A stretch of DNA of 17,856 nt from an uncultured bacterium (GTDB taxonomy: Bacteria; CSSED10-310; CAZUFC01), in assembly GCA_964619725.1 (NCBI GenBank), contig CAZUFC010000154.1, positions 1-17,856 on the forward strand. Reading direction: 5' to 3'. The notes beneath the pieces were generated by a model. The model did not search any database. It was not told where the DNA came from and saw nothing but the letters and a program-made list of their open reading frames with translations. The number at the start of each line of letters is the position of its first letter. The stretch's first letter is position 1. The translations under genes and the position numbers were made by a program. This document shows positions 1 through 15,577 of this stretch, piece by piece.

Positions 1-189
1 TTTTTTTCGCCCGTTGAAAACCGCTTCGGACCGCCTGAGAAATTATTGGATTTTTTCAGCCATTGGCCGCGAAACATAACAACCCCGATCCCGAAACAAA
101 CGACCCTCAATGAAAAAGAGGGGATTTCAATCATTCAAGTGTTTTATGAAAAAGTGTAACCCCCGGTTTGATCAGTCCCAAAAATCTTA

Positions 190-253
190 ATGAAAAGCAA
201 TCCCCCAAGCATCCCAAAAATAACCCAATCTAACTTCCCCTCTCCATTCATGG
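190..253 (+). repeat. Dispersed repeat copy: 30-bp C/A-rich unit (201-230) followed by the left half of a REP-like palindrome; homologous to 3088-3151
   Basis: 201-230 tcccccaagcatcccaaaaataacccaatc matches 3026-3055 and 3099-3128 at 27/30. It continues as taacttcccctctccattcatgg versus ttactccccctctccattcatgg at 3129-3151. Confidence 0.9.
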
Positions 254-305
254 AATACGTATTAGGATAAGCTTTACTTCATTACTTCTCAATATGTTGG
301 CTGAT
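254..305 (+). repeat. 52-bp repeat, inverted copy of 2819-2870
   Basis: aatacgtattaggataagctttacttcattacttctcaatatgttggctgat equals the reverse complement of 2819-2870 at 49/52 positions. Confidence 0.92.
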
Positions 306-307
306 GA

Positions 308-427
308 ATCGTTGTCGTTGTCAGTGAAGCGGTTGTCGTTGTCGGAGTATCGTGCGCAATGAATTTTAAACCCAATTTCACATGAATGAACTTCAGGTTT
401 AAATTCGACAGCGACAACGACAACGAT
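308..427. repeat. Inverted repeat built from (GTTGTC)n / (GACAAC)n hexamers, with an inner AT-rich inverted repeat
   Basis: 308-322 atcgttgtcgttgtc is the exact reverse complement of 413-427 gacaacgacaacgat. Inner 361-372 gaattttaaacc pairs with 396-406 ggtttaaattc with one bulge. Confidence 0.8.
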
Positions 428-501
428 CACGACAATTAATACATTTTTAACGTTTTTTGCTTTAAAAACAATGATTGGTTCCTGTTATCCTGATGCCAAA
501 G

Positions 502-535
502 CCATGAATGGAGAGGGGGCCGGGTGTGAGGTCAA
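502..535 (+). repeat. Right half of REP-like palindrome with GC-rich tail
   Basis: 502-518 ccatgaatggagagggg is the exact reverse complement of 237-253. The tail atggagagggggccgggtgtgaggtcaa closely matches 3148-3176. Confidence 0.88.
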
Positions 536-587
536 TAAGTTTTTTTCAAGTTTTAAACTGCAATCACAATCAGTATCGGTATCAGTC

Positions 588-905
588 TTATATCTCTTCT
601 TCCGTCTTGCCGGGTTCCGGCGGCAAGGGCATAAGTATCCACAGAATAAGGTAAATGAGAATTCCCCAGCCGCCGATGAAGGTCAAAATAATGAAAGCCA
701 GACGGATAAAAGTAACAGGAATGGCAAGCTGTTTCGCCAATCCTGCGCATATGCCGAGCAGCCTGGCATGCTTGCGGGACCTGGTCCATCCGACAAGAAA
801 CCGTTTTCTGTCCAGCCAGGCGCCGCAATAGCGGCACTTTATCGCCTCAGCCTTTATTTCTTCGGCGCAGAAGGGACATTTTTTTAATTTGTTTTGATTG
901 CACAT
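588..905 (-). CDS. pspC: PspC-domain membrane protein with N-terminal zinc ribbon (105 aa)
   Basis: CPFCAEEIKAEAIKCRYCG zinc ribbon, then a PspC-type motif RSRKHARLLGICAGLAKQLAIPVTFIRLAF...ILIYLILWILMP. Start moved from 968 to the ATG at 905 because AAAGGAG lies 8 nt upstream. The 968 start, overlapping the anti-sigma stop, is the alternative. Confidence 0.88.
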   Translation of the reverse strand: MCNQNKLKKCPFCAEEIKAEAIKCRYCGAWLDRKRFLVGWTRSRKHARLLGICAGLAKQLAIPVTFIRLAFIILTFIGGWGILIYLILWILMPLPPEPGKTEEEI

Positions 906-964
906 TTCTGAGGCTCCTTTGCCTGAGGCTTTTGAAAGCGTTCGGGAATAATTCCTACGCTTTT

Positions 965-1468
965 TCAAATTCTTTCATAGTTTAAAGAGTTATGGCTGCG
1001 ATTCTTTTCATTTTCATTGATTACGCCGGCCAGCAGGGGAATGGCTCCATAGGTCAATCCTGTAATAGTGAGCGTAGCGATGGAAAAGAAGACCAGGTAG
1101 AGATAACCCAGAGTCGGAGAAATATAATCGGCGAGCAGATTAAACCCGACGCTGGCCCAGAACCAGTTGATCAGGATGAGCAGGGGAAGGCAGAGCAGAC
1201 CGGCGAGGGTCAGTCTCAGGGTCAATTTTCTTGTTTTAAGCCTGGTAAACTCGTTTTCAGCCATCTCTGTGAGATTATTCAGCGTTTGCTTATCGAGCGG
1301 CTGCGGCGCTGCGGCTGAATTGAGGGAAAGCGCTGCCGGTTCGAGTTTCGCTATCTCTGTCCTGCAAAATTCACAAGATTCGATGTGCCGTTGCATGTCG
1401 GGCGACAATTCCGTACGGGGCAGCCGTTCCAGCCAATCGCCGAATTTCGGACAAATATCTTTTTTCAT
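965..1468 (-). CDS. Zinc-binding (ZAS-type) transmembrane anti-sigma factor
   Basis: N-terminal Cys plus HxxxCxxC (HIESCEFC). Two hydrophobic helices (LTLAGLLCLPLLILINWFWASVGF and LGYLYLVFFSIATLTITGLTYGAIPLLAGV). ATGA overlap with the stop of the upstream sigma gene. Confidence 0.85.
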   Translation of the reverse strand: MKKDICPKFGDWLERLPRTELSPDMQRHIESCEFCRTEIAKLEPAALSLNSAAAPQPLDKQTLNNLTEMAENEFTRLKTRKLTLRLTLAGLLCLPLLILINWFWASVGFNLLADYISPTLGYLYLVFFSIATLTITGLTYGAIPLLAGVINENEKNRSHNSLNYERI

Positions 1469-2139
1469 GATCCTTGCCTCGAATCCTCAAAATACAGTCG
1501 AAGTTTGCTCATAGCCGTATGCAGCCTGCTTTTTACAGTACCGGGAGGAATGGATAATGCCTGGGCTATTTCTTCATGCGTCAGGCCGCTGTAAAATTTC
1601 AGCGCCACGGTTTCCCGTAATTTAGGGGAAAGGGATTTCATCGCCCTGGATATTTCCAGCTCGTTTTCCGCATTACTGGCTGCCGCCGCCTGTTTATCCA
1701 GTCCTGCCGAGTCTGCATGTTCGGGATGAGCGGATAGTTTCAGGATGCTGCGCAGGCGTTCACGGCGAAAATAAGTCCGGCAACAGTTAACGGCAATTTT
1801 AATCAGCCACGGCGCCAGAGGTCGGGATGCATCATATTGATGAAATTTTCTAATGACCTGGACCCAGGTGTTTTGAAGAATATCATCGGACGCGCTGCGA
1901 GAACCCGTCATTTTAAGGAGTATGACATATATTCTGTCGGAGTAGCGAGTCGCGAGTTCGCCCAGCAGGTCGGTCCTTCCTGCCCGTATACGTTCCGCCA
2001 GGACGCTTTCCGGTGAATTAAAGCTGGTTTCGAGTTTTCTCCTCATTGGTTCTGCAGTAGCAGGCTGACACCCTTCAGCGCCGTTAAATCCGTTCAGAAG
2101 CGATGCCGGTTTCAGAATCCATGCAGAGGTGACTATCAT
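1465..2139 (-). CDS. ECF-family RNA polymerase sigma-70 factor (RpoE/SigW-like)
   Basis: Region 2: SASDDILQNTWVQV...PWLIKIAVNCC. Region 4: LSPKLRETVALKFYSGLTHEEIAQALSIPPGTVKSRLHTA. GAGG RBS upstream of 2139. Alternative start at 2046. Confidence 0.95.
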   Translation of the reverse strand: MIVTSAWILKPASLLNGFNGAEGCQPATAEPMRRKLETSFNSPESVLAERIRAGRTDLLGELATRYSDRIYVILLKMTGSRSASDDILQNTWVQVIRKFHQYDASRPLAPWLIKIAVNCCRTYFRRERLRSILKLSAHPEHADSAGLDKQAAAASNAENELEISRAMKSLSPKLRETVALKFYSGLTHEEIAQALSIPPGTVKSRLHTAMSKLRLYFEDSRQGS

Positions 2140-2244
2140 GGTTCATCCTCACATCAACAATAAATCATTATTTAACGCTTTCGGCAACCCTTTTCAGGCT
2201 GCAGATAAAATATCCCGTTGAAAGCGCTGCCCACGCTTTCCCCC

Positions 2245-2649
2245 TCAGCCATTGTTCACATCGGTCGTTGACTGATCCTCTTGGATAGTCCGGTATCCGA
2301 TGCGGCAGGCGCGTATTATCCTTTCTATCGGCGATCTTCCATTTTTTTCATAGGGCGTAAGCAACCACACGGCCAGGTATGCAATCAATCCCAGTCCGTG
2401 ATACAGAGTCAAAATGACGAATAACACTCGCCAGGCTAAAACGGGAACGCTCGTATTCACGGCGAGCATGCTGCAAACGCCGAAGATTTTTCTGCCCGGC
2501 AAATTCCGGGACCAGGAAGATAATGTCTCTGCAGCGTTCAGCGTACTGCGACACCATCTGCATTTCACCGCTTCCGCTTTAATCTGTTCAAAACAATAGG
2601 GACAGGTTTTCATCTCCTGACCCTTTTCAGAGGTTTCTTCAGAATTCAT
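2245..2649 (-). CDS. pspC: PspC-domain membrane protein with N-terminal zinc ribbon (134 aa); paralogue of 588-905
   Basis: CPYCFEQIKAEAVKCRWC ribbon, then RKIFGVCSMLAVNTSVPVLAWRVLFVILT...LIAYLAVWLLTP. Start set at ATG 2649, preceded by AAAGGAG. Alternative start at 2682. Confidence 0.85.
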   Translation of the reverse strand: MNSEETSEKGQEMKTCPYCFEQIKAEAVKCRWCRSTLNAAETLSSWSRNLPGRKIFGVCSMLAVNTSVPVLAWRVLFVILTLYHGLGLIAYLAVWLLTPYEKNGRSPIERIIRACRIGYRTIQEDQSTTDVNNG

Positions 2650-2687
2650 TTTCCGCTCCTTTCCGGTCTTCCGACCTTTCATAAGTT

Positions 2688-2715
2688 ACTACGCGCCGGC
2701 GGGGAATTTGGTTCG
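2688..2715 (-). promoter_or_regulatory. Putative ECF-sigma-dependent (autoregulatory) promoter
   Basis: Minus strand reads cGAACC-aaattccccgccggcg (16 nt)-CGTAgt. This fits the ECF pattern of AAC in the -35 and CGT in the -10 (compare SigW TGAAAC-N16-CGTA). It lies about 40 nt upstream of the first gene of the sigma cassette. Confidence 0.7.
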
Positions 2716-2818
2716 GTTTTACTTTTGCTTTTTTTTAAGGAATTTTATCGGAACAACTCAATAGTTTTATAAAACCGACATAAAAAAGTTTTTTCGGCAT
2801 TGATCAGAATTACGTCCT

Positions 2819-2870
2819 ATCAGCCGACATATTGAGAAGTAATGACGTAAAGCTTATCATAATACGTATT
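2819..2870 (-). repeat. 52-bp repeat, inverted copy of 254-305
   Basis: Reverse complement matches 254-305 at 49/52. It ends in the perfect palindrome aatacgtatt. Confidence 0.92.
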
Positions 2871-3025
2871 TCGCAAGCGGTATGGCTTTGTTTTAAATGA
2901 ATTTTTTGGATCGGCTGTTTTTTTTCGTCAAACATTTCACAATTATTACCAGTCAATCTCATGCGATGTGAATGAGGTGTAAAAAGAAACTTCTCTGAAA
3001 CCAGACATAAACCATCCCAAAGAAG

Positions 3026-3128
3026 TCCCCCAACCATCCATAAAATAACCCAATCAAATTCCAGGAATGGAAAACGGACGAATATACATGAAGCGTAATC
3101 CCCCAACCATCCATAAAATAACCCAATC
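3026..3128 (+). repeat. Two identical 30-bp direct repeats separated by 43 bp
   Basis: tcccccaaccatccataaaataacccaatc occurs at 3026-3055 and 3099-3128. A third, diverged copy is at 201-230. Confidence 0.92.
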
Positions 3129-3133
3129 TTACT

Positions 3134-3176
3134 CCCCCTCTCCATTCATGGAGAGGGGGCCGGGGGGTGAGGTCAA
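3134..3176 (+). repeat. Intact REP-like palindromic element (CCCCCTCTCCAT-TC-ATGGAGAGGGGG plus ccggggggtgaggtcaa tail)
   Basis: Perfect 12-bp inverted repeat at 3134-3145/3148-3159 with a GC-rich tail. The same element appears split at 237-253 and 502-535. Confidence 0.85.
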
Positions 3177-3354
3177 CCCACCAACAACCATCAAAACTCC
3201 AAGCCGTTAATCCGGCAAATATTTTATGTTTTCTTTGTAAGTTACCAGCCGCAATCAGTATTTGATCAGACCCAATGGCCTATATTCCAAGCAATTGAAT
3301 CATCAGCGCCTGTGCATCCTGGTGCGTTTAATTAACTTAAAAGACAGCCGCTTT

Positions 3355-5616
3355 CTAATGACTATGAATATCCATCCGTGACTTTCCCGGAATGCAGATA
3401 AAGAAGATGAAGGCTGGAAGAATCAGGAGAAGCGCTGTGCCGGTATGTGAGAGTAGTGGTATTACGGGCGGCGTTGGAGTATGTGTAATAGTAGGAGTAG
3501 GAGACGTGGGCGTAAGGGTAGCGGTCAGCGTCGGCGATTTTGTGGGCGAAGCGGTCGGGGAGAAGGAGGCAGTAGGCGTTGGCGAAAGAGTGGGCGAGAC
3601 GGTCGGAGAAGCCGTTGCTGATGCCGAAGGCGTGGCGGATGCTGTCATTGTCGGAGTTTCCGTGGGCGTGTCAGTGGTCTCCGGCGTTGTCGTAATCGTG
3701 GGTGTCGGCTGACAGTAATAGGTAAATATCCCTTCATCGGTCATCCAACCGGCAATATCGTCGACAGGCTCCGAGAATGTTGCTGGAAATTCTTCTTCCT
3801 GTTCGCATGTTTCACAAATAACCGTGAAATTGAGTAATATTATGGTGTCGTTGTTGTGGGTCGTAATGGGTTCCGAAGAGAATCCGCCTATACGCAGGCG
3901 TCCTGGTTCGGGATTATTGCAGAGCAGGTAGGGCCATTCCGCCGTCAGGGCGCCGGGTTCCCAGGAGGAGTATTCCAGAACGTTCGAGGGGTAATGAAGA
4001 TTGAACCCGAAGGCATCGACGGGTGTATCGGGATTGGATATGGATACTGGCATTTGTATTGTATCGTCGATGCATCCTGAAGCGTTTTGAATGCTGATGA
4101 GATCGCAATCAAATGTGAAAGCGCCGTCCTGGGAAGGCCACCGGTGAATATCATCAACGAAACCGCCCAGGTGCAGAGGAGAGGAATCATTAATGTTGCA
4201 GTTTTCGCAGGCGACTGTAAATTTAAGGATTAAAATACTCCCTGTACTGCCGGGAGGGATAGAATCCGCAGCGAAACCTCCGGCCCTTATCCGTCCGGCA
4301 TCTGCGGCGTTACAATGCAGGTAAGGCCAATCGTCCGTCAGATCGCCGTAATCGCAAGAAGCGAATTGAAGCATTTCCGGGTCATAATGGAAGTCGAACC
4401 CGAAGGCATCGACAGCCGTATCGTTGTTGGATATCAGGACAGGTATTTCGATTTCAGCGCCGGAGCATGCTGAGACATTTTCAACCCAGATCATATCGTC
4501 AGTGGGAGTTGAAGTGGCTTCAGGGGTGAACGTCGGTTCGGGCGTCGACGTAGGTACGGGCGTATTGGTAATGGTTGGCGTGAGAGTTACCGTCGGAGTC
4601 AGCGTGACCGTGCAGGTGGGAGTCGGAGTGCAGTAAAAAGTGAAAGCGCCGTCCTGAGAAATCCAGAGATGAACATCGTCCTTCAGGTTGCTCAAATGAA
4701 ACAGAGAGGTGTCTCCGTTATCGCATGACGGGCAGGTGATATTGAGCGTGAGGGTAAGAAGAGCGCCGGCGCTTCCCGTCGGTATGGCTTCGACCGCGAA
4801 TCCTCCTGCCCTCAGCCGGCCGGGTTCGGGATTGCTGCAGTTTATGTAGGGCCAATCCTGGGTAAGGTTTCCGGGTTCAAAATCCGCATATTCGAGCATT
4901 TCCGGATTGAAATTCAAGTCGAAACCGAAGGAATCCACGGGGGTATCGGGGTTATTGATGAAGACGGATACTTGAGCGGTTTCGCCGGTGCAGCCCGTGG
5001 CGTCGCCGGTCCAGATCAGGTCGTCGGTCGGGGTGAAAGTAGGCAAGGGCGTCGGCGATGCGGTGGGTGAAAGGGTTGGAGTTGCAGTGGGAGATAAGGT
5101 CGGGGAATAAGTGGGAGTGGAAGTGGGATAACAGAAATAGGTAAATGTTCCCGTTTCAGCCGTCCATCCGGATATGTCGTCTACCAGTCCGTCAAGATAC
5201 ACTTCACATTCGTCGAACTGATCGCACGCCTGGCAGTTCACAGTAAACGTCAGTACGGCTATGGTTCCCGAACTGCCCGCAGGGATAGCTCTCGTGCTGA
5301 ACCCGCCGATACGGACGCTTCCCTCATCCGTTTCATTGCAGTAAAGAAACGGCCAGTAAAATGTCAGTTCACCCACATCGCACTCAACGAATTCCAGCAT
5401 GTCAGGGCAATAGTGCAGGTCGCAACCGAAGGAATCGAGCGGCGTATCGTCGTTCGAGATGGATACGGCAATGTTTATAGAGTCTCCATTGCAACCTGTG
5501 CTGTTTTCGACACGGAGAAGGTCGCCCCGGAATGCCGGGGTATGTCCGGCTGCCGGGGAAACCTCCACCGCGACGAAAAACATTGCAGTTAAGCTTATTA
5601 TGACGAACCATTTCAT
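3355..5616 (-). CDS. Secreted, membrane-anchored scaffoldin-like protein: four cohesin-like domains, Pro/Thr linkers and IPTL-CTERM-like anchor (753 aa)
   Basis: Signal peptide MKWFVIISLTAMFFVAVEVSPAAG. Four 131-aa repeats (aa 32-162, 199-329, 374-504, 505-635) with a cohesin-like pattern (V.I.N.DT.VD.FGF.L.Y.P.MLEF....G.LT; AIP.GS.G.I..L.F.V). PT-rich linkers. C-terminus VIPLLSHTGTALLLIL followed by a hydrophobic helix and a basic tail. Confidence 0.85.
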   Translation of the reverse strand: MKWFVIISLTAMFFVAVEVSPAAGHTPAFRGDLLRVENSTGCNGDSINIAVSISNDDTPLDSFGCDLHYCPDMLEFVECDVGELTFYWPFLYCNETDEGSVRIGGFSTRAIPAGSSGTIAVLTFTVNCQACDQFDECEVYLDGLVDDISGWTAETGTFTYFCYPTSTPTYSPTLSPTATPTLSPTASPTPLPTFTPTDDLIWTGDATGCTGETAQVSVFINNPDTPVDSFGFDLNFNPEMLEYADFEPGNLTQDWPYINCSNPEPGRLRAGGFAVEAIPTGSAGALLTLTLNITCPSCDNGDTSLFHLSNLKDDVHLWISQDGAFTFYCTPTPTCTVTLTPTVTLTPTITNTPVPTSTPEPTFTPEATSTPTDDMIWVENVSACSGAEIEIPVLISNNDTAVDAFGFDFHYDPEMLQFASCDYGDLTDDWPYLHCNAADAGRIRAGGFAADSIPPGSTGSILILKFTVACENCNINDSSPLHLGGFVDDIHRWPSQDGAFTFDCDLISIQNASGCIDDTIQMPVSISNPDTPVDAFGFNLHYPSNVLEYSSWEPGALTAEWPYLLCNNPEPGRLRIGGFSSEPITTHNNDTIILLNFTVICETCEQEEEFPATFSEPVDDIAGWMTDEGIFTYYCQPTPTITTTPETTDTPTETPTMTASATPSASATASPTVSPTLSPTPTASFSPTASPTKSPTLTATLTPTSPTPTITHTPTPPVIPLLSHTGTALLLILPAFIFFICIPGKSRMDIHSH

Positions 5617-5634
5617 TCGATCATTTCCCTTCGC

Positions 5635-8600
5635 TTAATGCAAAAGACCGAAGCGGTCCGTATGCGTCGTTTTCGTCGACAATTTTTCATCGCCCGGCAG
5701 AAAGGTCATAACTTCATAATCTTCAATATCATCCGCCAGGCTGTGTATCGTGATGTCATTCAAGAATCCTTCGCTCAATTCATGCGTTTCGATTGCAATG
5801 ACGGCCAGCAGCGTTTCGGAATCTGCAGGGATGGCGGAAAGGACGTCAAAAGCGCCGATAATCAATTCGTTTTCAACCGGTCTGGCGCCTGTCAACAGCC
5901 AATCGCCTACCGGTCCCGGGAACTGAGTTTCGACGGATGGGGGAAGGTTCTCAGCGAATGAAATGCGTAATCCCAGCGAGTCCACAGGAGTGTCGAAATT
6001 TTTCAACCAGAGCGATATGACGGCCAGGTTTTCTCCCGCTTTTTCATTGACTTCAGCAAGCAGAATACCGGGAGCCGAGCTATCCGGCCGCAAACTTCCC
6101 TCCGATTCGACGGGAGCGGCTGATTCTTTGCGTCTAATGGACTTTTCGATATCATCGGGGTAAATGGATGCCGTTTTGGAGGTGAAGTCATCAGCCGGGT
6201 CACCTTTGGAGGGTATAGGATCGATGCAGTCGCAATCCAGTTCGAGATAGAACCAGAATATGCATTGAGCGTCTGCGGGGGTGACGTCTCCGTCGCCGTC
6301 GCAGTCTGCAGAGCAAAGTTCCTCAAAAGTCGGGTCAAGGAACAGGGAAAGGTAAATCAGAAAGGCCAGTTGACCGTCCTGGGGCGTCTTTTCGCCGTTA
6401 TTGTCCACGTCGCCGTCGTTAATGCAGATGAGTGTCGGAGTAATGGTTGGGATTTCGGTAGGTTCAGGAGTATCTGTGGGAGTCGCGGTAGGACCTGTCG
6501 GCGTAATGGTCGGCGTCAGCGTCGGGGGGCCCGGAGTTTCCGTCGGACCCGGAGTCATTGTAGGCGAAGGAACCGGACCGCTTTCCCAGTTCTCATAGAC
6601 GACTTCACCCAGAGAGGTGTTATCCCGGACGTCATATATGCGGGAAATATTCGAAGGATAGCCTTCGAGTTCCATTTCAGCGGTTACGGCTTCGCCCCAC
6701 CAGCAATATTGAGCAGCAACCGCGTAACTCGAATTGTTGTATATCTCATAGGTGTCGTTCAGATACAGGTTGTTGTAGTTGAAATCCACAACCGCACCGG
6801 CGCTGTTGATTCTGACTCCATACCCGCCGTTCCAGTGAATCTCGTTATACCTGAAGTAAGCGGCATTGCTGTTGTACTCTATACCGTATCCGCCGTTATG
6901 ATGAACCTGGTTCATGAGGAAATATCCCGGTCCATTCTCGCAATGAATTCCATATCCGACATTGCCGTAAACTTCATTGAGCGTGAAATCGCCGAAACCG
7001 CTGCTGCCGACCCTGGTTGTGAATCCTGCAGCCCCGTTGTCGTAGACGGCGTTGCCGAAGGCCGTCACTTCAACTACCGACCAGGCATAACATCCCTCTT
7101 CCGCATTCTCATATATATCGCTGTTCTCAAGGACCAGGCCGGAAATCCAACTGTAACTCGAATGTTCATACCTGCGCAATTCCAAGCCTCTTTCCCCGTT
7201 TCCGTGAAGGGCGCAATTACGGAGCTCGACATTTAAAGGCGAATACTGCCGGTAATAGCATATTTCCAGTCCGTCTCCCCCGTTGTCGCCGGAGGAATCG
7301 CCCTGCAGACTGGTAAGGAGATTGGAAGAATACGAATTGTAATAAACGTTGATGCCGTCTGCTGCATTATTATAGGTCATGTTGTTCTGGAGGGCTGCAA
7401 TCAGGTATGAACAACTTGAACCGGAGTATATGGACAACCCGTGATTTCCGTTATCCTGGCAGGTGTTGTTTTCAATCTGAAGCTCGATGTACGATGAGGA
7501 ACCGGGATAAATACAGCGAATTCCGTCGGCAAAATTGTTGGAGCAATGGTTGCCCTGTATGATGGCTGTAATGTTGGAAGCGCAGGTCAATGCCAGGCCG
7601 TGGCTGTTGCTGTCGTATCCGTTGTCGAAAATGAGGTTTCCCTGTATCAGGATATCCTGATCGGAGGTCGTTCCGGAAATGCCGCAATAGTAGTTCTCGC
7701 TTAAACTGCAATTTGTTATCGGAATCGAAGCTGAATCCAGGGAGATGCCAATATGAGCCCATTCGATGTTGCAATGATCCACAACGCACAGCAATTCGTC
7801 AGGATCGACGAAACGTATGCCGTACCAGTCCTTTTTCTTCGGTATGGCCGAATCGACGGTGAAAGTTATTTCGTTTCCCGCATCACCATCCGCTGACAGG
7901 GCCCCTTCTATGATGAGTTCCGTCCTGGACGTGTCGGCGCCGCTGATCGTATCGTCCCTGTTTGCAGCGAAAGTTACGACTGTGCCCGGTTCTATCGTTA
8001 ATGTCGTTCCGCTCGGAACTATTACATCACCCGTTATGTACATGCTTCCATTCCAGGTTTCATCCGTATACAACCGTCCCCAGGTATGCTTCAATCCTGC
8101 ATCAACCGTCACCGTTACTCCGGGCCCCGGTATCTCCTCATTAAGGTCAACGTCTACGGCCTTGGACTTAAGGGTATATTCTCCCTCGGTATTCGCAAAC
8201 CAGGGGAAGGACCAGTATTCGAACCCAACGGCTTCCTCCCAGGTTACTCCGGCGTCTATGCTGGCTTCCACATGGTCCAGTCCTATCGATGACAGGGCTA
8301 TTCCTTCTATATCATACGTGCCGTTCGGCAGCGTCATGCCGTCCATCGGATCGATTATATAGGAAACAGGGTCCACGTTTATGTCGAATCCGCCGCCGAG
8401 CCATCCCCGGTAATCGACCATGCCCAGAGCGAAATCATCATGAATATCGTGAACCTTCGCCAGGTTCGTCGTGTATCCCAATGCATCCATCTGGGCCGTC
8501 GTGACGTCTCCCCACCAGTTGATACGGGCATCGACGGCGTAAGATGAATTGTTGTACATCTCGTAGGTATCGTTCCTGAAAATGTTGTTGTAATGAAAAT

Positions 8601-11600
8601 CGTTCACTCCGTCGCATCCGTCGAAACGGACGCCGTACCCCTGGTTCAGGTATATGTTGTTGTGAATGAATGTCCCCGTCTTATTGGAAAACTGAATGCC
8701 ATGGCCCGTATTCTTCTTTATCTCATTATACGCAAATCGCGCATCAGCATTCACGCAACTGATCCCGAATCCCATGTTTTTGTATAAATAATTGCCGATG
8801 AACTCAGCCCCGCCGCTGCCCGCTTTAACATTTACTCCATTGCTTTCATTCTCAATGAAATCATTGTCGTGCAACTCAACCCGGTTAATTTCCCATAAAT
8901 TGCAACCCTCGTTAATGTTTTCATATATGCTGCAACTCGACAGCGTTAAACTCGTGATCCAACTGTAACTGGTGTGATTGTAACGGTGAGCATAAATTCC
9001 GCGGCCGCCGTTGGAATAAAACTCGCCCCCGTCGATATCTATGACCATCGGCGTATAACAGCGATAGTAATATACTTCCAGACCGTTTCCCGAATTCTCA
9101 TAGGATACGTCAGACTGGGACGTGAGCTGGAGATTGCTGGAATAGTTATTGTAATAGACATAAAGACCGTTGCCGCCGTTATTATGGACGGTGTTTCCCT
9201 GCAGAGAGGCAGTGAGGTTAGACGAATTGTCCGCATAATAAATGTGTATGCCGTGGTTGTCGTTATCATGACAGAGGTTGTTCGCCAGGAGGAGCTGGGC
9301 GGCGGCAGAGCTGCTGCCGTGAGTGATGTAAATTCCCGTGGAACAATTGTCGTAAACATGATTTCCATCGAGCGTCATGAGGGCGGAGGAAGCGGCGGTC
9401 AGAGCTATGCCTTCTGCGGCGACAGTGACGTCGGTATTCGATATTTCATTATTCTGTATGTAAAGGTCTACTGATGCCGCAGACCCGGCGATGCCCTTAT
9501 GATAAAAATTGGAAATCCGGCAGTTGCTGATGACAGGCGAAGCCGTCTCAAGAGTTATGCCCGTATGAGTCCATTGGATATCGCAGTGGTCCATCAGACA
9601 GAGAGCATGTTCAGGGTTTACAAAACGTATGCCGTGCCAGTCTCTCAGTCCCGGAGCGCCCGCATCGCTGGTAAAAACGATCTCATTGCCGGGTTCGCCG
9701 TCCGCTACTAGTATACCCTCAATAATGAGCTCGCAGCGGGAAGTATCCGTGCCGCTTATCATATCGTCCCGGTTTTTCGAAAAAACTACGGTCGTTCCCG
9801 GCTCGATCGTCAATGAAGCGCCCCTCGGAACCGTAACGTCGCCTGTTATAACCACTGTATCGCTCCAGGTCTCATTACCGAATATTTCTCCCCAGGCATG
9901 CAGGAGAGTTTCATCCACATCCACGTATATTCCGGGACCGGGCGTTTCCTCATTGGCTTCCTCATCAACAGCCTTGGAATTTACATTATATGTTCCCGTC
10001 ACACTGGCATACCAGGGATAAATCCAATCATTCGTTCCGTCTGCATCCAGCCAGAATAAGCCTCCGTCATTCGTTACATCCACATAATCTATACCCGCCG
10101 CGGCGCAGGCAACTCCCTGAATATCGATCAGACCGCGGGGAATGACCATGCCTTCCAGCGGAAAGACTATGTGAGAGGCCGGGTCTCTCGCCGTATCCAG
10201 GGGCGCATCGGTCCATCCGCGATAATCGATCATGCCCCGAGTGAAATCGTCATGGATATCGTAAAGCTTCGATATGTTCGCCGTATAACCCCAGGAGTTC
10301 ATCTGAGCCGTATTAACTGTCCCCCACCAGTTTTTTCTGGCATCAACGGCTATCGTCGTATTGTTGTAAATCTCATACGTATCGTTGTCGTAAATATTGT
10401 TGGCGTTCACAACTTGAACTCCCGATCCGTTGTGAAACCTTATACCGTAACTCCCGTTTCCGTATACATCATTCTGAACGAAAAACGCGGCTCCGTCTCT
10501 GAAATCGACTCCCATTCCTGTGTTTTCACGGATCGAATTATAACTGAATTCCGCACTCCCGCCGTTGCTCTGAATCCCGTGACCGCCGTTGAGATATACT
10601 TCATTGGCGCGAAAATATCCGTTGTCCCCGCTATATTTCACGGTTATTCCGCTGGCGATGTTCTCGTGAATACTGTTTTCCGTTAATGAAATCGACGCGC
10701 TTTCCCAGACGTAGCAACCTTCATCTCCGTTCTGATAAATATTGCACCCGGATATGCTCGTGTCAGATATCCAACTGTAACTCGAATGATTGTAACGGGA
10801 TATTCGTATGCCCTTTTCTCCGTTACCGAATGCAGCGCAACCGTCCACCGTTATATTCATCGGCGAATAACACCGGTAATAGTAAACTTCAATCCCGTCA
10901 CCCGCATTGTCATAGTAAGAATCACCGGATAAATCGAGATTCAGAACGGAAGAATATGAATTGTAATAAACATATACGCCGCTTCCGCCGTTGTTGTAAA
11001 CCGTGTTGTCCTGCAGACTCGCCGACAAATTCGTAGAACTGCTGCCGTTGTAAATATGAATGCCGTGATCTCCGTTGTCGTGACTGGTATTATTGGCGAT
11101 AGTCAATTGCGTATTTGAACTGGAGCCGCCGTAAGTGCAATATATTCCTCTGTCTGCATTATCGTGAACGTAATTGTCGAGCAGGACCGCCGTCGCAGCC
11201 GTATGACAGGTCAATGTTATTCCGTCGCCGTCCGCAATCGAACCGGAGTTGTATATCTCATTCCCCTGAAGGGTGATGTTCACGTCCGAAGCGCTGCCGG
11301 ATATTCCCCGATGCGAACTGTCGGATATGACGCAGTTGGAGATTGACGGCGATGCCGAGTCAAGTCTTATGCCTATATTACCCCACCGGATATGACAATA
11401 GGACAGCGAACATAAAAGGTCGTCTGGGTCGACGAACCTGATCCCATACCAGTCGTTCGGCTCGGGTTCCGCATCATTGCTCGTGAAAATGATCTCATTT
11501 CCTGATTCGCCGTCTGCAGTCAGAATTCCCTCAACAATCAACTCGCAGCGCGAACTGTCCGCTCCCCCTGAAGTGTCGTCCGATATCGCCGTAAACTCTA

Positions 11601-11793
11601 CCAGCGTACCCGGCATTATCGTCAGGCTGATCGCATCAGGTACCGTTACGTCGCCTGTGATGAGAATACTGCCGCTCCACGTTTCATCCGTCGTTAAAGT
11701 CCCTGATGTAGTTTGCGCTGTAATATTTGAAACACAAAGAAAAATGAAAAAAACCGCTAACGCGGCATGACGAAAAAAGTGACTCCCTTTCAT
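5635..11793 (-). CDS. Giant secreted protein (2052 aa): three right-handed parallel beta-helix modules (two with an Ig-like domain), Pro/Thr linker, dockerin-like domain and C-terminal cohesin-like domain
   Basis: Signal peptide. GGAGGAGG RBS. Many PbH1-like N..Y.N...GI repeats. Modules begin near aa 28, 632 and 1236 (ETW.G...ITGDV.VP...LTI.PGT). Duplicated Ca-binding loops DVDNNGEKTPQD and DCDGDGDVTPAD. The last ~120 aa resemble the neighbouring gene's repeats. Confidence 0.9.
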   Translation of the reverse strand: MKGSHFFRHAALAVFFIFLCVSNITAQTTSGTLTTDETWSGSILITGDVTVPDAISLTIMPGTLVEFTAISDDTSGGADSSRCELIVEGILTADGESGNEIIFTSNDAEPEPNDWYGIRFVDPDDLLCSLSYCHIRWGNIGIRLDSASPSISNCVISDSSHRGISGSASDVNITLQGNEIYNSGSIADGDGITLTCHTAATAVLLDNYVHDNADRGIYCTYGGSSSNTQLTIANNTSHDNGDHGIHIYNGSSSTNLSASLQDNTVYNNGGSGVYVYYNSYSSVLNLDLSGDSYYDNAGDGIEVYYYRCYSPMNITVDGCAAFGNGEKGIRISRYNHSSYSWISDTSISGCNIYQNGDEGCYVWESASISLTENSIHENIASGITVKYSGDNGYFRANEVYLNGGHGIQSNGGSAEFSYNSIRENTGMGVDFRDGAAFFVQNDVYGNGSYGIRFHNGSGVQVVNANNIYDNDTYEIYNNTTIAVDARKNWWGTVNTAQMNSWGYTANISKLYDIHDDFTRGMIDYRGWTDAPLDTARDPASHIVFPLEGMVIPRGLIDIQGVACAAAGIDYVDVTNDGGLFWLDADGTNDWIYPWYASVTGTYNVNSKAVDEEANEETPGPGIYVDVDETLLHAWGEIFGNETWSDTVVITGDVTVPRGASLTIEPGTTVVFSKNRDDMISGTDTSRCELIIEGILVADGEPGNEIVFTSDAGAPGLRDWHGIRFVNPEHALCLMDHCDIQWTHTGITLETASPVISNCRISNFYHKGIAGSAASVDLYIQNNEISNTDVTVAAEGIALTAASSALMTLDGNHVYDNCSTGIYITHGSSSAAAQLLLANNLCHDNDNHGIHIYYADNSSNLTASLQGNTVHNNGGNGLYVYYNNYSSNLQLTSQSDVSYENSGNGLEVYYYRCYTPMVIDIDGGEFYSNGGRGIYAHRYNHTSYSWITSLTLSSCSIYENINEGCNLWEINRVELHDNDFIENESNGVNVKAGSGGAEFIGNYLYKNMGFGISCVNADARFAYNEIKKNTGHGIQFSNKTGTFIHNNIYLNQGYGVRFDGCDGVNDFHYNNIFRNDTYEMYNNSSYAVDARINWWGDVTTAQMDALGYTTNLAKVHDIHDDFALGMVDYRGWLGGGFDINVDPVSYIIDPMDGMTLPNGTYDIEGIALSSIGLDHVEASIDAGVTWEEAVGFEYWSFPWFANTEGEYTLKSKAVDVDLNEEIPGPGVTVTVDAGLKHTWGRLYTDETWNGSMYITGDVIVPSGTTLTIEPGTVVTFAANRDDTISGADTSRTELIIEGALSADGDAGNEITFTVDSAIPKKKDWYGIRFVDPDELLCVVDHCNIEWAHIGISLDSASIPITNCSLSENYYCGISGTTSDQDILIQGNLIFDNGYDSNSHGLALTCASNITAIIQGNHCSNNFADGIRCIYPGSSSYIELQIENNTCQDNGNHGLSIYSGSSCSYLIAALQNNMTYNNAADGINVYYNSYSSNLLTSLQGDSSGDNGGDGLEICYYRQYSPLNVELRNCALHGNGERGLELRRYEHSSYSWISGLVLENSDIYENAEEGCYAWSVVEVTAFGNAVYDNGAAGFTTRVGSSGFGDFTLNEVYGNVGYGIHCENGPGYFLMNQVHHNGGYGIEYNSNAAYFRYNEIHWNGGYGVRINSAGAVVDFNYNNLYLNDTYEIYNNSSYAVAAQYCWWGEAVTAEMELEGYPSNISRIYDVRDNTSLGEVVYENWESGPVPSPTMTPGPTETPGPPTLTPTITPTGPTATPTDTPEPTEIPTITPTLICINDGDVDNNGEKTPQDGQLAFLIYLSLFLDPTFEELCSADCDGDGDVTPADAQCIFWFYLELDCDCIDPIPSKGDPADDFTSKTASIYPDDIEKSIRRKESAAPVESEGSLRPDSSAPGILLAEVNEKAGENLAVISLWLKNFDTPVDSLGLRISFAENLPPSVETQFPGPVGDWLLTGARPVENELIIGAFDVLSAIPADSETLLAVIAIETHELSEGFLNDITIHSLADDIEDYEVMTFLPGDEKLSTKTTHTDRFGLLH
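6226..6426 (-). other. Cys-rich dockerin-like domain (aa 1790-1856 of the 2052-aa protein)
   Basis: GDVDNNGEKTPQDGQLAFLIYL...ADCDGDGDVTPADAQCIFWFYL gives two loop-helix (F-hand) repeats, placed directly after a PT linker. It contains six Cys. Confidence 0.8.
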
Positions 11794-11882
11794 GAAAATA
11801 ATCCTCCTCCAAGATGTTGAAATGCCGTTCCTTTTAGATGCCGGTGCATCGTTTTTCCTGTTGCCGATAAAAGATTCGAATA

Positions 11883-11911
11883 ATTGTAACGTATGTGAGG
11901 GTAAATGTCAA
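11883..11911 (-). promoter_or_regulatory. Housekeeping sigma70-type promoter for the beta-helix/scaffoldin operon
   Basis: Minus strand TTGACA (11911-11906), 17-nt spacer, TACAAT (11888-11883). It is about 90 nt upstream of ATG 11793. Confidence 0.8.
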
Positions 11912-12355
11912 ACAGAAATTCGGTTAACTTCGCAAACCGCGGAGGTTCCAGGTCGCCGCATAATACGTCGCCTTTTGTTCCAGGCCCTTGCTTCAACCTT
12001 TAAAAGTAAAAAGGCGGCAAAAACGACGGACAGGTTCCCCGGATAGTCGCTATACTTTATTTTTCGCGTGTTTTCTTGACTTTCTCAGGTTCGTTTCCGT
12101 ATTGATAAGAGAATACGTTTTTAATGCATCGCTTCGTATTCAATTGAATGAAAGTCAAGGGGAGACGTTTTACATGAAGCGAAGCAGAACAGGAATTCAA
12201 ATGAGATACAGGCTTGGGAGTAAAAAATTTTGAGAATCTGGATAACAGTGAGGAAATCAACGAGGAGAGGAGGTTAAGGAAGAAGTGGAGTAGTTGAATT
12301 GAGGTTTTGCAAGACAAGTGAGATTTAAACGAAGAAGATCGAAGAAGGAGGGCAA

Positions 12356-15300
12356 ATGAGATACAAAGTCTTGTCGATTCTATTGTTTGCATTATTAGTT
12401 AATATTGTCTGGACATCGGCGGAAATACCGCATCAGATAAATTACCAGGGTCATTTAACGGATGATTTGGGAATGCCGCTGTCCGGCGAATATGATTTCA
12501 CGTTTGGCTTATACGATGCTGAGTTTGATGGGGAAGAGTTATGGACGGAAGCTCATGAAAACGTAATGGTCAGCGAGGGAATATTTCATGTGCTGTTGGG
12601 TTCCGTCAATCCCGTTGAGCTGGATTTTTCCGGCGCTTATTGGCTGGAAGTGGAAATAGAAGGGGAGACGTTGAACCCCCGCCTGGAATTCACCAGTGTG
12701 GGGCAGGCATATCGAAGCGAAGAAGCGGAAGACGTATATTATCGTGATATTAATCCAAAAAGCGTAACGATTGCAGATTACGGGCTGGTGATAGATGAGA
12801 CCGGTCAGTGGCTTGGGGACCCGACAGGTCTCACAGGTCCGACAGGTCCGCAAGGCGAAACCGGCCCCGCGGGTCCTCAAGGCGACACCGGTCCTATTGG
12901 GCTTCAGGGCGATACGGGATTAACAGGTCCGCAAGGCGAAACCGGTTCGATGGGCGCTCAAGGCGACACCGGTCCGCCAGGACTTCAGGGAGATACCGGG
13001 TTAACGGGTCCGCAAGGCGAAACTGGTCTGGTGGGTCCTCAAGGCGACACCGGCACGCAAGGCTTCCAGGGTGATACTGGATTGACAGGCCCTCAAGGTG
13101 ATACCGGCCTGCAAGGTCCTCAGGGAGACACCGGCTTGACAGGTCAACAAGGGGACACAGGACCGATGGGCGCTCAAGGCGACACCGGCATGCTGGGGCC
13201 GATGGGCTTTACGGGACCGATAGGGCCGCAGGGCAATACCGGCCCGCAAGGTCTTCACGGCAATACCGGCCCGGTGGGTCCTCAAGGCGACACCGGCATG
13301 ACGGGGCCGATGGGCTTTACGGGACCGATTGGACCGCAGGGCAATACCGGCCCGCAAGGTCCTCAAGGCGACACAGGCCTGGTGGGTCCTCAAGGCGACA
13401 CCGGCATGCTGGGGCCGATGGGCTTTACGGGACCGGTAGGACCGCAGGGTTCCACAGGTCCAATGGGTCCTCAAGGTGATACGGGTCCGATGGGGGTTCA
13501 GGGCGACGCCGGTCCGACGGGTCCGATAGGTCCTCAAGGGGATACCGGTCCTGAAGGTCCTTACGGCCCGCAAGGCGATACGGGACCGACCGGTCCTCAA
13601 GGCGATACGGGACCCGTCGCGGGCATGAACGGTCAGTTGATTTATAACGATGAGGGTTCTGCATCGGGTTCAGAAGTCTATTATGACAAAGCTACGGGCA
13701 ACGTAGGAATTCATACGTCAAGTCCTGCGGCTGATCTTCATCTTTATGGAACGAATCCTGTTATTACATTTGAGGATGACAGCGACGGCGACAACGGCGT
13801 CTGGATGCATTTGCAGAAAACGAGCGATTCGCCTGCCGCCAACGACCGTTTAGGCCGGATAAGATTTTACGGCAACAACGATTCCGCTGCGCCCGCGCTG
13901 ACTCAGTATGCATTCATAGAAGGATATACTTCCGATGTAACGGAAGGGGATGAAGCCGGAAAAATGTATCTGTCGACCAGCCTGGCGGGATCGACAAGCA
14001 ACATGCTTTGCCTGGACGGAGCACGTTACGGCGTTGGGGAAGGCCTGGCCAGTTTCAACAACAGTCTTCACGACGTTGATTTTCAGGTCTGCTGGGACGG
14101 CGGCTACAATGCCTTGTACATAGACGGCGAAACGGGATATACGGGACTGGGAACCAACAGTCCGAAAGGCCGGTTGGATGTCTCAGGTCTCCTTTACATC
14201 GGACGACAGTTTGCCGATTATACTTCAAGAACGATATATGTATCTCTGACCGGAGACGATACGACGGGCGACGGGTCGTCCGGGAATCCCTATTTGACGA
14301 TTAACCGGGCGCTCAATGACATTCCGACGGTTTTGAATTATTCCGTTACGATACAGTTCGAGGATGGAACTTACTATCTTACGACCGATCCGGTCCTGGC
14401 CGGAAGATGCGGCAGCCGGGGCAGGATATATATTCGAGGCAATTCCTCCGACAATTCAGCGGTTGAGCTCAACATGAACACAAGGCTTTTCTACATCAAC
14501 GACAATGATCCTCAGATTTACTTTCAGAATATGACTATAACTTCGGGGACGAATCATCCCTGGAACATCAACAGCCAGCGAAATCGGTACATAAATATTC
14601 AGAACTGCATCTTCATAAAAACTATGGACCAGGCCAACTGGCACAGCATAATGTCATTCGTCGACGACGTTTTCGTGCGAGTGGATGCTGAAGTCATTTC
14701 CCAGGGAACACACGGCGGTTACGGCGGACTTATACGTTTCAAGGGAGTAACAAACGGCTCCGTCGTCGGTTCCGTCACCAGGACAGGCGAACAAATGGGA
14801 ATTGCCGTAACGATATATGACGGGTCAAACGTCAGTGTAGGCGCTGATATCACCAATTTCAACAAGGGAATATTTATCGGCAGAGACCATTACAATTGCG
14901 AAGGGCCGGCAACGGCCATTTTAACCAGCAACGCTGTGATAAGCGACTGCTACTACGGCGCTTATATAACCCGTATGGGTTTCCTGAACACCTGTTCCGG
15001 CAACTTCTCCAACAATACATTCGATATTTACCGTTACATGGGCGCATCAGACGACGACCTGAGCATTGCGGGAAGCGTAGCCATCGGAACGCATGACCCG
15101 GGAAGCTATAACCTGTATGTTTCCGGTACGGCCTACTGTACGACAAGCTGGCAAACATCCGATGCAAGATTTAAATCAGAAGTAGCCCCCATTTCCAATG
15201 CGCTGGAAAAAGTGACGAAAATGCAGGGCATCGAATACCTCTGGAACGCGGACCAATATCCCGATTACCGTTTCGATCGAAACAGAAATATAGGATTAAT

Positions 15301-15469
15301 CGCCCAGGATGTTGAAAGCGTTCTTCCGGAAATAGTCCATACCGGTGAAGACGGGTATAAGTCCATTTCTTACGATATGTTGACCGCTGTTCTGGTGGAA
15401 GCGATCAAAGAATTGGAAGAGAAAAACGAGCTCTTGCAGGCACAGATTGACGAAATGAAAGGGAGATAA
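12356..15469 (+). CDS. Secreted collagen-like / tail-fibre-like trimeric protein with beta-helix-like head and C-terminal Peptidase S74 intramolecular chaperone (1037 aa)
   Basis: AAGGAGG RBS and signal peptide. N-terminal domain [11 protein letters not shown]...GIFHVLLG. Gly-X-Y run at aa 158-421. GNVGI.T..P fibre repeats. [14 protein letters not shown]...PY.TI..AL motif typical of pectin-lyase-like starts. S74 motifs [20 protein letters not shown] and [12 protein letters not shown] plus coiled coil. Confidence 0.92.
12827..13618 (+). repeat. Collagen Gly-X-Y repeat, 88 triplets
   Basis: 792 bp of [12 protein letters not shown]-type triplets. It contains a near-identical block recurring at a 108-bp period (13187, 13295, 13403). 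Confidence 0.95.
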
Positions 15470-15519
15470 CGGCGGCTCCAATCAGGGCTTGAGAACGACT
15501 TGGACTTCCGCGATTCAAT

Positions 15520-15558
15520 CTGTTTTCCCCATGCCGGACTCCGGCATGGGGAAAACAG
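15520..15558. repeat. Perfect 39-bp palindrome between convergent genes (possible bidirectional terminator or REP)
   Basis: ctgttttccccatgccgga-c-tccggcatggggaaaacag: 19-bp arms with a 1-nt centre. No clean U-tract follows the stem on either strand. Confidence 0.85.
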
Positions 15559-15577
15559 TATTCAATTTACCCGAAAA

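Follow-up and report, generated by a model that had tools for sequence, protein, structure and literature searches.

Background

Proteins having both a cohesin and a dockerin are established adaptor scaffoldins in those parts of the reviews that were available, and the ones having one dockerin and one cohesin were defined as "monovalent adaptors" in a genomic survey of 2024 (PMC11557425, available in part). Here we describe such a protein, P0001, which is encoded in a stretch of 17,856 nucleotides from an uncultured bacterium of the CSSED10-310 lineage (assembly GCA_964619725.1, contig CAZUFC010000154.1, positions 1 to 17,856; this whole stretch is called the window hereafter). P0001 is a giant beta-helix protein with one dockerin and exactly one cohesin, placed one after the other at its C-terminus, and its gene is followed by that of a scaffoldin with four cohesins, P0002. 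Adaptors with the order payload, dockerin, cohesin are already in print and P0001 belongs to that kind.

For Paenibacillus guangzhouensis the available part of the survey reports 28 monovalent adaptors, many with an N-terminal glycoside hydrolase; nearly all dockerins are placed in proteins that also have a cohesin, and it was suggested that further dockerins had gone undetected or that foreign ones are scavenged (PMC11557425). The likeness to the window lies in the single dockerin–cohesin pair per protein, often behind an N-terminal enzyme, and in the separate anchoring scaffoldins, and the binding is putative in both. As far as the available text goes, that system is Gram-positive with SLH anchors and glycoside hydrolase payloads, whereas the payloads here are giant beta-helices and relatives with the cassette have titles like candidate division CSSED10-310 and Krumholzibacteriia. 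The dockerin of the window, with six invariant cysteines, is set apart from those of P. guangzhouensis by description and not by comparison of sequences, and the scaffoldins here differ in that they carry several cohesins, end in tails made of a motif, a helix and basic residues, and are encoded directly downstream.

The adaptors ScaC and ScaH of Ruminococcus flavefaciens presumably have the cohesin before the dockerin and no large payload, whereas the order here is payload, dockerin, cohesin. The available parts of the reviews describe ScaC and ScaH as type-switching and not as self-binding. Use outside cellulosomes is reported for ANME archaea, which have dockerin and multi-cohesin proteins (PMC9012536, available in part), and the hypothetical planctomycete "planctosome" has an adaptor of the form dockerin-HYR-cohesin (PMC6461901, available in part), whose hyaline-repeat domain between the two modules is unlike the spacer of the window. 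So far as these sources show, the domain orders and payloads of the ANME proteins, the planctosome and the Archaeoglobus fulgidus cohesin 2XDH all differ from those found here. A literature search, which did not cover supplements and reached several sources in part, gave no paper testing self-binding of a C-terminal cassette of dockerin, spacer and cohesin, and the genome announcement of CSSED10-310 has 0 occurrences of cohesin or dockerin. What is particular to the window is that giant beta-helix proteins end in a dockerin followed by a cohesin, that the dockerin has six cysteines, that the genes form a tight operon with those of tail-anchored scaffoldins with several cohesins, and that the terminal cohesins make up a separate, fast-evolving clade.

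Identity of the dockerin and the terminal cohesin

The coding region of P0001 and the features of its C-terminal part are as follows.

5635 to 11793, minus strand: P0001, putatively secreted payload-dockerin-cohesin protein of 2052 amino acids in a single open reading frame (ORF); Pfam Beta_helix 1.8e-80, NosD 1.3e-29
6217 to 6426, minus strand: cysteine-rich dockerin, residues 1790-1859, with two EF-hand-type loops, three helices and six cysteines
6070 to 6216, minus strand: spacer, residues 1860-1908, 49 amino acids, predicted local distance difference test score (pLDDT) 36-56, unconserved in the cassette alignment
5701 to 6069, minus strand: terminal cohesin, residues 1909-2031, 123 amino acids, divergent and free of cysteine
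5638 to 5700, minus strand: C-terminal tail of 21 amino acids, pLDDT 37-55, unaligned among cassettes and with no membrane anchor in this copy

The tandem of dockerin and terminal domain is placed in the last 242 codons of the 2052-codon ORF; the first cysteine of the dockerin is encoded by codon 1790, which begins at base 6426, and base 5701 closes the terminal domain. A preliminary description of the window, made from the sequence alone, had read here a dockerin, a spacer of about 50 amino acids and a terminal domain related to the four repeats of P0002, and these three parts are confirmed with the lengths listed above.

The dockerin has two loops of 12 residues, DVDNNGEKTPQD and DCDGDGDVTPAD, whose starts lie 35 residues apart and each of which is followed by a helix. 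Both have D or N at positions 1, 3 and 5 and D at position 12, as a duplicated Ca2+-binding loop has, and they are predicted to bind calcium. Across 18 aligned cassettes the residues D9, G10, D11, D22 and D57 of the dockerin are invariant, and so are its six cysteines and one aspartate of the DD pair after strand 8.

The terminal domain is 17-25% identical to the repeats of P0002 over 129 aligned positions, where the repeats among themselves have 40-49%. By BLASTP it is in register with all four repeats (E 5e-5, 2e-4, 3e-3 and 0.31), and a MAFFT alignment with these repeats shows, in collinear order, all three pairs of short motifs which the preliminary description had pointed out. A hidden Markov model (HMM) of the four repeats found the terminal domain at E 0.0023 among the 17,798 ORFs of the genome; when this HMM was iterated with the terminal domain excluded from the iteration, it was found at E 1.2e-10. 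An HMM of the seven closest paralogues, with the copy of the window left out, matched the terminal domain at E 3.5e-23 and the four repeats of P0002 at 1.7e-12 to 9.4e-17. The similarity is weak and still beyond chance. By sequence, the cassette profile also matched the solved cohesins 6kg8_A (3.5e-5) and 4uyp_A (1.4e-3). The domain has 0 cysteines, as had been stated, against 5-9 in the slices of the P0002 repeats.

On the last 283 amino acids of P0001 the Pfam model Cohesin (PF00963, gathering cut-off 24.1 bits) gave no match even at E<=10, Dockerin_1 (PF00404) gave 11.8 bits and E 0.3, below its cut-off of 22.9, and no NCBIfam family matched. Since Pfam and NCBIfam gave no usable call, the HMMs were built from the genome itself, whose contigs carry C-numbers below (G000 is the genome of the window; G003 and G004 are other genomes of the phylum). 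The terminal domains of the paralogues on C7, C18, C19, C25, C34 and C182 do match Pfam Cohesin, and paralogous dockerins pass the Pfam cut-off on C276 and C277 (35.6 bits), C122 (32.1), C86 (31.8), C64 (29.1) and C20 (26.2). Against a leave-one-out HMM of the paralogous cassettes, the dockerin of the window reached 116 bits.

The AlphaFold2 model of the 268-residue cassette of the window has a mean pLDDT of 81 (alignment of 18 rows), with 91-96 in a three-helix dockerin of the expected fold and 86-98 in the terminal domain, which is modelled as a nine-stranded beta-sandwich like the solved cohesins; the spacer between them is predicted to be disordered except for one helix of low confidence. 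Foldseek with this model returned cohesins and carbohydrate-binding modules (CBM) of family CBM2 at similar E-values, and in a structure comparison cohesins ranked about 3 Z units higher than CBMs. Sequence profiles and predicted folds together support, in line with the preliminary description, a genuine dockerin followed in tandem by a genuine but strongly diverged cohesin, homologous to the repeats of P0002.

Two other origins of the similarity were considered. Chance, or a CBM in place of a cohesin, was ruled out by the iterated HMM, the leave-one-out HMM and the structure comparison; a recent copy of a P0002 repeat was ruled out by the placing of the terminal domain in a separate clade (support 100/93).

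Recurrence of the cassette in the genome

The genome has 9.17 Mb in 344 contigs and is 90.9% complete with 6.5% contamination. Pfam gave 31 cohesin matches (E<=0.001) and 28 dockerin matches (E<=1) over it, and the subfamily HMMs gave 34 ORFs with 56 cohesin domains and 25 ORFs with a cysteine-rich dockerin. In 22 of these 25 ORFs a spacer of 27-63 amino acids leads from the dockerin to a cohesin. Nineteen of the 22 cassettes are intact, one is cut N-terminally by a contig end (C182:12613-13437), one is cut C-terminally (on C265, where it leaves the contig as the cohesin begins) and one, on C12, is broken by a stop or frameshift. The dockerin stands without a following cohesin in three ORFs only, on C101 (172 amino acids), C116 and C131. 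The arrangement had been treated as singular; instead, the unit of dockerin, spacer and cohesin is a conserved C-terminal cassette which is repeated about 22 times in this genome.

At ten places a gene with one to five cohesins lies directly behind the cassette gene. Each of the 12 scaffoldin-type proteins in the genome begins with a signal-like segment and closes with a C-terminal tail composed of a motif, a hydrophobic helix and basic residues, in which the motif is variable and most often [IV]P[ASL]-like. The giant proteins on C7, C19, C34 and C182, of up to 12,076 amino acids, carry the same kind of tail immediately after the terminal cohesin, and none of their genes has a scaffoldin gene of this subfamily beside it.

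Several single observations were made on these proteins. The largest payload belongs to the 12,076-residue ORF C34:1739-37969 (plus strand), which ends in the cassette and a membrane tail. The tripartite tails may represent an exosortase-type sorting signal and not a simple anchor; a single Exosortase_EpsH match was obtained in the genome (C134:13003-13455, 35.5 bits), and the NCBIfam sorting-signal models gave no match on P0002. The proteins of C86:30045-33221 (minus strand) and C122:13844-17086 (plus strand) have the order cohesin, dockerin, cohesin: a scaffoldin-type cohesin joins the dockerin without a linker (...TFTFIDCINDGDV...), and a spacer of about 41-43 amino acids leads to a divergent terminal cohesin of the clade to which the window's copy belongs. 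Each of these two genes is followed by that of a one-cohesin anchored protein.

The broken cassette, at C12:40012-40745 (minus strand), lies in three short ORFs (a dockerin of 106 amino acids and two cohesin pieces of 82 amino acids) with an in-frame TAG, and may be a pseudogene or an assembly error. The near-identical cassette proteins of 578 amino acids at C276:2815-4551 and C277:3-1739 lie on short contigs and have terminal cohesins that are identical in the tree; either the locus was recently duplicated or the assembly has split it, and the cassette count is inflated by one. Pfam cohesins and dockerins outside the subfamily HMMs were seen on C106, C59, C19:55731-57030, C9, C45, C42/C81 and C215, which suggests that the genome has another, distinct set of cohesins and dockerins; this set also places a dockerin protein beside a cohesin protein, for example at C106:15415 and C106:13798-14643.

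Occurrence outside the genome

In a set of 1.84 billion representatives, 3,658 proteins matched the cassette profile at E<=1e-3, and 272 did so at E<=1e-30. Among the 150 representatives in the matches listed, 53 have the dockerin and the cohesin spanned in one stretch, mostly at the C-terminus. Their payloads are diverse in the 45 that were scanned with Pfam and include beta-helix/NosD, Laminin_G_3, FG-GAP with CARDB, Calx-beta, subtilase with GEVED, LRR with MG2 and, in one case, an RskA-type anti-sigma domain. Within the phylum, 10 of the 14 genomes match at E<=1e-10, that of the window included, and full cassettes are present in seven others; the succession of cassette gene and cohesin gene is found again at G003:C25, G003:C12 and G004:C199. 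A search for related loci confirmed 7 of 113 pattern matches, and the titles of these public loci name candidate division CSSED10-310 (4), uncultured bacterium (2) and Krumholzibacteriia (1). A word-indexed homologue search with residues 1785-2052 returned three proteins including the query and was too insensitive, so the profile search was used instead. The ESM Atlas has clusters of about 200-280 amino acids which were automatically named "Cohesin/Dockerin type I domain-containing protein". Since the same type of dockerin occurs alone at C-termini in relatives, it does not need a following cohesin, and an obligatory chaperone role of the cohesin for the dockerin is unlikely.

Evolution of the terminal cohesins

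In a tree of 54 cohesin domains, whose bootstrap was not yet fully stable and in which long rows were hard to place, the label terminal or scaffoldin needs 3-4 changes; shuffled labels needed 16-17 on average and none of 500 shuffles was as low. The window's copy belongs to a clade of eight terminal domains with the support given above. End branches in this clade are 0.12-2.3 long (1.88 for the window's copy) against 0.2-0.95 for the cohesins of neighbouring scaffoldins. In another clade, that of C20, C64, C97 and C276/C277, the terminal cohesins are sister to the scaffoldin cohesins of their neighbours (support 100/99).

The clade of the window was compared for conservation with the five matching scaffoldins, which contribute 17 cohesins. 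Only 14 conserved positions are shared: eleven are hydrophobic or glycine, one is serine and two are the DD pair, with a conservation of 100% in either set. The scaffoldin cohesins conserve polar positions on strands 3, 5 and 6 (D 0.76, N 0.76 and R 0.76), strands which we take from type I cohesin structures to lie on the dockerin-binding sheet; at these positions the top residue of the terminal clade reaches 0.25-0.38. The dockerin helices vary among paralogues at a few positions of the 18-cassette alignment, for example L1812 and W1847, which are presumably of the kind that contacts the cohesin. Because the terminal clade evolves fast and its polar strand positions differ, the terminal socket may not be simply equivalent to the scaffoldin sockets, and since unlimited chain growth would need such equivalence, the divergence weighs against it.

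Predicted contact of the dockerin with the terminal cohesin

The predicted template modelling score (pTM) of the AlphaFold2 model was 0.77 for the 268-residue cassette of the window and 0.76 for the cassette of C7, which has a spacer of 27 amino acids. By our own estimate a pTM of about 0.5 would be expected if only the cohesin were fixed in such a chain; as both values exceed it, the dockerin appears, from this summary number, to be packed on the cohesin in both models. When the dockerin (cassette residues 1-78) and the terminal cohesin (118-256) were predicted as two chains, the score was 0.44 (0.46, 0.44 and 0.42 in single runs), which is weak support, and the best of three controls scored 0.00. 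The contacts of the runs agree at 100% and the pLDDT of the partner is at least 84, with a custom alignment. In the benchmark of this procedure 116 of 157 solved complexes and 2 of 215 mismatched pairs came up to the mark; scores of 0.60 or less that reached the mark came from 18 of the solved complexes and from both passing mismatches.

The modelling gave a compact cassette in the single chain and a score above the controls for two chains, and it would suit pairing in cis as well as in trans. The models are weak evidence for a contact between the dockerin and the terminal cohesin.

Proposed mechanism and its alternatives

We tentatively favour, as a quite possible account, a payload-carrying monovalent adaptor whose dockerin docks on the scaffoldin and whose terminal cohesin caps its own dockerin in cis as long as the protein is free. 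P0001 would be exported, as its signal-peptide-like N-terminus suggests, and its dockerin would plug into the four cohesins of the anchored P0002, so that several copies could be held on the cell surface; the docking is inferred because dockerin and scaffoldin genes are coupled at the ten pairs of the genome and at loci in relatives. The terminal cohesin, on its flexible spacer of about 50 amino acids, would pair with a dockerin of its own family, and in the free protein the partner would most probably be its own dockerin, as the models and physical reasoning suggest. An intramolecular cap, which the preliminary description had named as its second choice, would fit the tethered geometry at least as well as a new docking site. 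Such a cap would explain the fast evolution of the clade and the loss of disulfides, because the high effective concentration on a tether would tolerate weak affinity. As a speculative last step, the scaffoldin would take the dockerin and thereby free the terminal socket for another subunit or for a dockerin-only protein.

The following points weigh against this account. Neither the dockerin nor the terminal cohesin of P0001 is recognised by Pfam. The two-chain score lies in a band that is more often wrong than right unless the pairing is likely beforehand, both predictors may reproduce a remembered pose because cohesin-dockerin complexes have been solved, and the models would fit pairing in cis and in trans alike. 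The variable polar positions may reflect loss or change of binding as well as weak binding in cis. Further, 17 dockerin-only matches occur in relatives among the 150 matches listed for the genomes of the phylum.

The dockerin-only proteins on C101, C116 and C131, of a kind that relatives have as well, could be the ligands of an adaptor that works in trans only, whose terminal cohesin has a specificity differing from that of the scaffoldin cohesins and of its own dockerin and recruits other dockerin proteins, either of the same genome or of neighbouring cells, thus switching type or branching. The separate clades of the terminal cohesins and their differing polar strand positions are compatible with it, though neither is a test of specificity, and type switching is the published reading of monovalent adaptors, with scavenging of foreign dockerins suggested for P. 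guangzhouensis (PMC11557425, available in part). Yet three dockerin-only ORFs face about 21 terminal and 32 scaffoldin cohesins in the genome, AlphaFold2 and the two-chain model put, weakly, the own dockerin on the terminal cohesin, and any ligand in trans would face competition from a tethered plug that is cognate or nearly so; we regard this account as rather unlikely. A terminal cohesin that has kept its fold and lost dockerin binding, to serve as a stabilising or spacer module or to bind for example an envelope glycan in the manner of a CBM, would suit the long branches in most of the clade, the loss of all cysteines, the variable surface positions and the missing Pfam match. It appears improbable since the domain is kept in all eight members of the clade, the model is full-length and confidently folded, the DD pair is fully conserved in terminal and scaffoldin cohesins, the structure comparison favours cohesins over CBMs, and the two-chain score exceeds that of every control.

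The leading idea of the preliminary description was head-to-tail self-polymerisation, in which the terminal cohesin would take up the next subunit's dockerin no less well than a scaffoldin cohesin does, and non-covalent chains or brushes of beta-helix proteins would grow from each scaffoldin socket. Both modules are indeed present in every subunit with a near-universal pairing (22/25), the models lend weak support to the contact itself, and the terminal cohesins of C20/C64/C97/C276/C277 are sister to the scaffoldin cohesins of their neighbours. For the dockerins of C7, C19, C34 and C182 the terminal cohesins are the sole candidate partners of this subfamily, because no scaffoldin gene of the subfamily is adjacent. 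Physical reasoning runs the other way, as a flexible tether of 27-63 amino acids would favour intramolecular closure except at very high local concentration, and the terminal cohesin of the window, at 17-25% identity, is without the conserved polar positions of the scaffoldin cohesins. Its diverged surface and the entropic advantage of closure in cis therefore disfavour unlimited growth for the window's copy, for which we consider the idea improbable; chains are possibly more attractive for the anchored giants and the C20/C64/C97 clade. Little credence is likewise given to a more elaborate scheme of scaffold-nucleated, non-covalent polymerisation, where cis-closed subunits would be opened by a scaffoldin cohesin and the freed terminal cohesin would capture the next dockerin, so that chains would start from the anchored scaffoldin alone and build a fibrous coat; the variable positions of the dockerin and the variable surface of the terminal cohesin would keep about ten loci orthogonal.

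If the cassette works as a self-capping adaptor, an uncultured and probably Gram-negative lineage would build much of its surface from plug-and-socket parts unrelated to cellulose breakdown. The near-universal pairing of a dockerin with its own cohesin provides a testable question left by the published surveys, namely whether the second module caps its own protein, extends a chain or recruits other proteins. For the engineering of protein assemblies the family could supply dockerins braced by disulfides and about ten sets of plug and socket that are possibly orthogonal; if the terminal cohesin is inert or merely type-switching, P0001 would be an ordinary adaptor.

Locus architecture and neighbouring genes

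The remaining features of P0001 and those of P0002 are listed below.

11716 to 11793, minus strand: P0001 signal-peptide-like N-terminus, residues 1-26, hydrophobic core ending ...NITA (by inspection of the sequence, with no predictor)
6562 to 11715, minus strand: P0001 payload of three tandem modules; Pfam Beta_helix in 9 stretches, NosD in 5, and Big_7
6427 to 6561, minus strand: P0001 linker rich in proline and threonine, residues 1745-1789 (by inspection)
3355 to 5616, minus strand: P0002, anchored scaffoldin of 753 amino acids; Pfam Cohesin 6e-30, 4 stretches
5131 to 5523, minus strand: P0002 cohesin 1, residues 32-162 (subfamily HMM)
4630 to 5025, minus strand: P0002 cohesin 2, residues 198-329 (subfamily HMM)
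4105 to 4500, minus strand: P0002 cohesin 3, residues 373-504 (subfamily HMM)
3712 to 4104, minus strand: P0002 cohesin 4, residues 505-635 (subfamily HMM)
3358 to 3471, minus strand: P0002 tripartite tail with PPVIPLL motif, hydrophobic helix and basic residues (by inspection)

Each payload module of P0001 has about 604 amino acids and consists of a right-handed beta-helix and an Ig-like domain; the modules start at residues 38, 642 and 1246, and on inspection TW..ITGDV is repeated at these starts. P0002 starts 18 nucleotides past the stop of P0001, with a ribosome-site-like GAAGGGA motif in the gap, and the operon pairing with an anchored four-cohesin scaffoldin holds. Its layout, with a signal-like N-terminus, four Pfam cohesins, linkers rich in proline and threonine, and the tripartite tail, is that of an anchoring scaffoldin, where the topology is read from the sequence; the tail may be a membrane anchor or a sorting signal.

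The locus is flanked by two large proteins with collagen-triple-helix repeats, at 12356-15469 (plus strand) and 15578-17854 (minus strand, running off the window). The former has at its C-terminus a Peptidase_S74 domain ("chaperone of endosialidase", 1.1e-14) of the kind found in self-cleaving fibre proteins. Past P0002 lie three genes at 965-2682 (minus strand): one for a protein with a PspC domain and a zinc-ribbon-like N-terminus (2245-2682), one for a sigma factor of the ECF type (1465-2139) and, overlapping the sigma factor gene, an ORF of 167 amino acids with no family match (965-1468), which could be an anti-sigma factor. In P0088, a cassette-bearing representative from other DNA, an RskA-type anti-sigma domain is fused to the dockerin and cohesin; along with the sigma-factor neighbours of the window, this hints that the state of assembly might be sensed.

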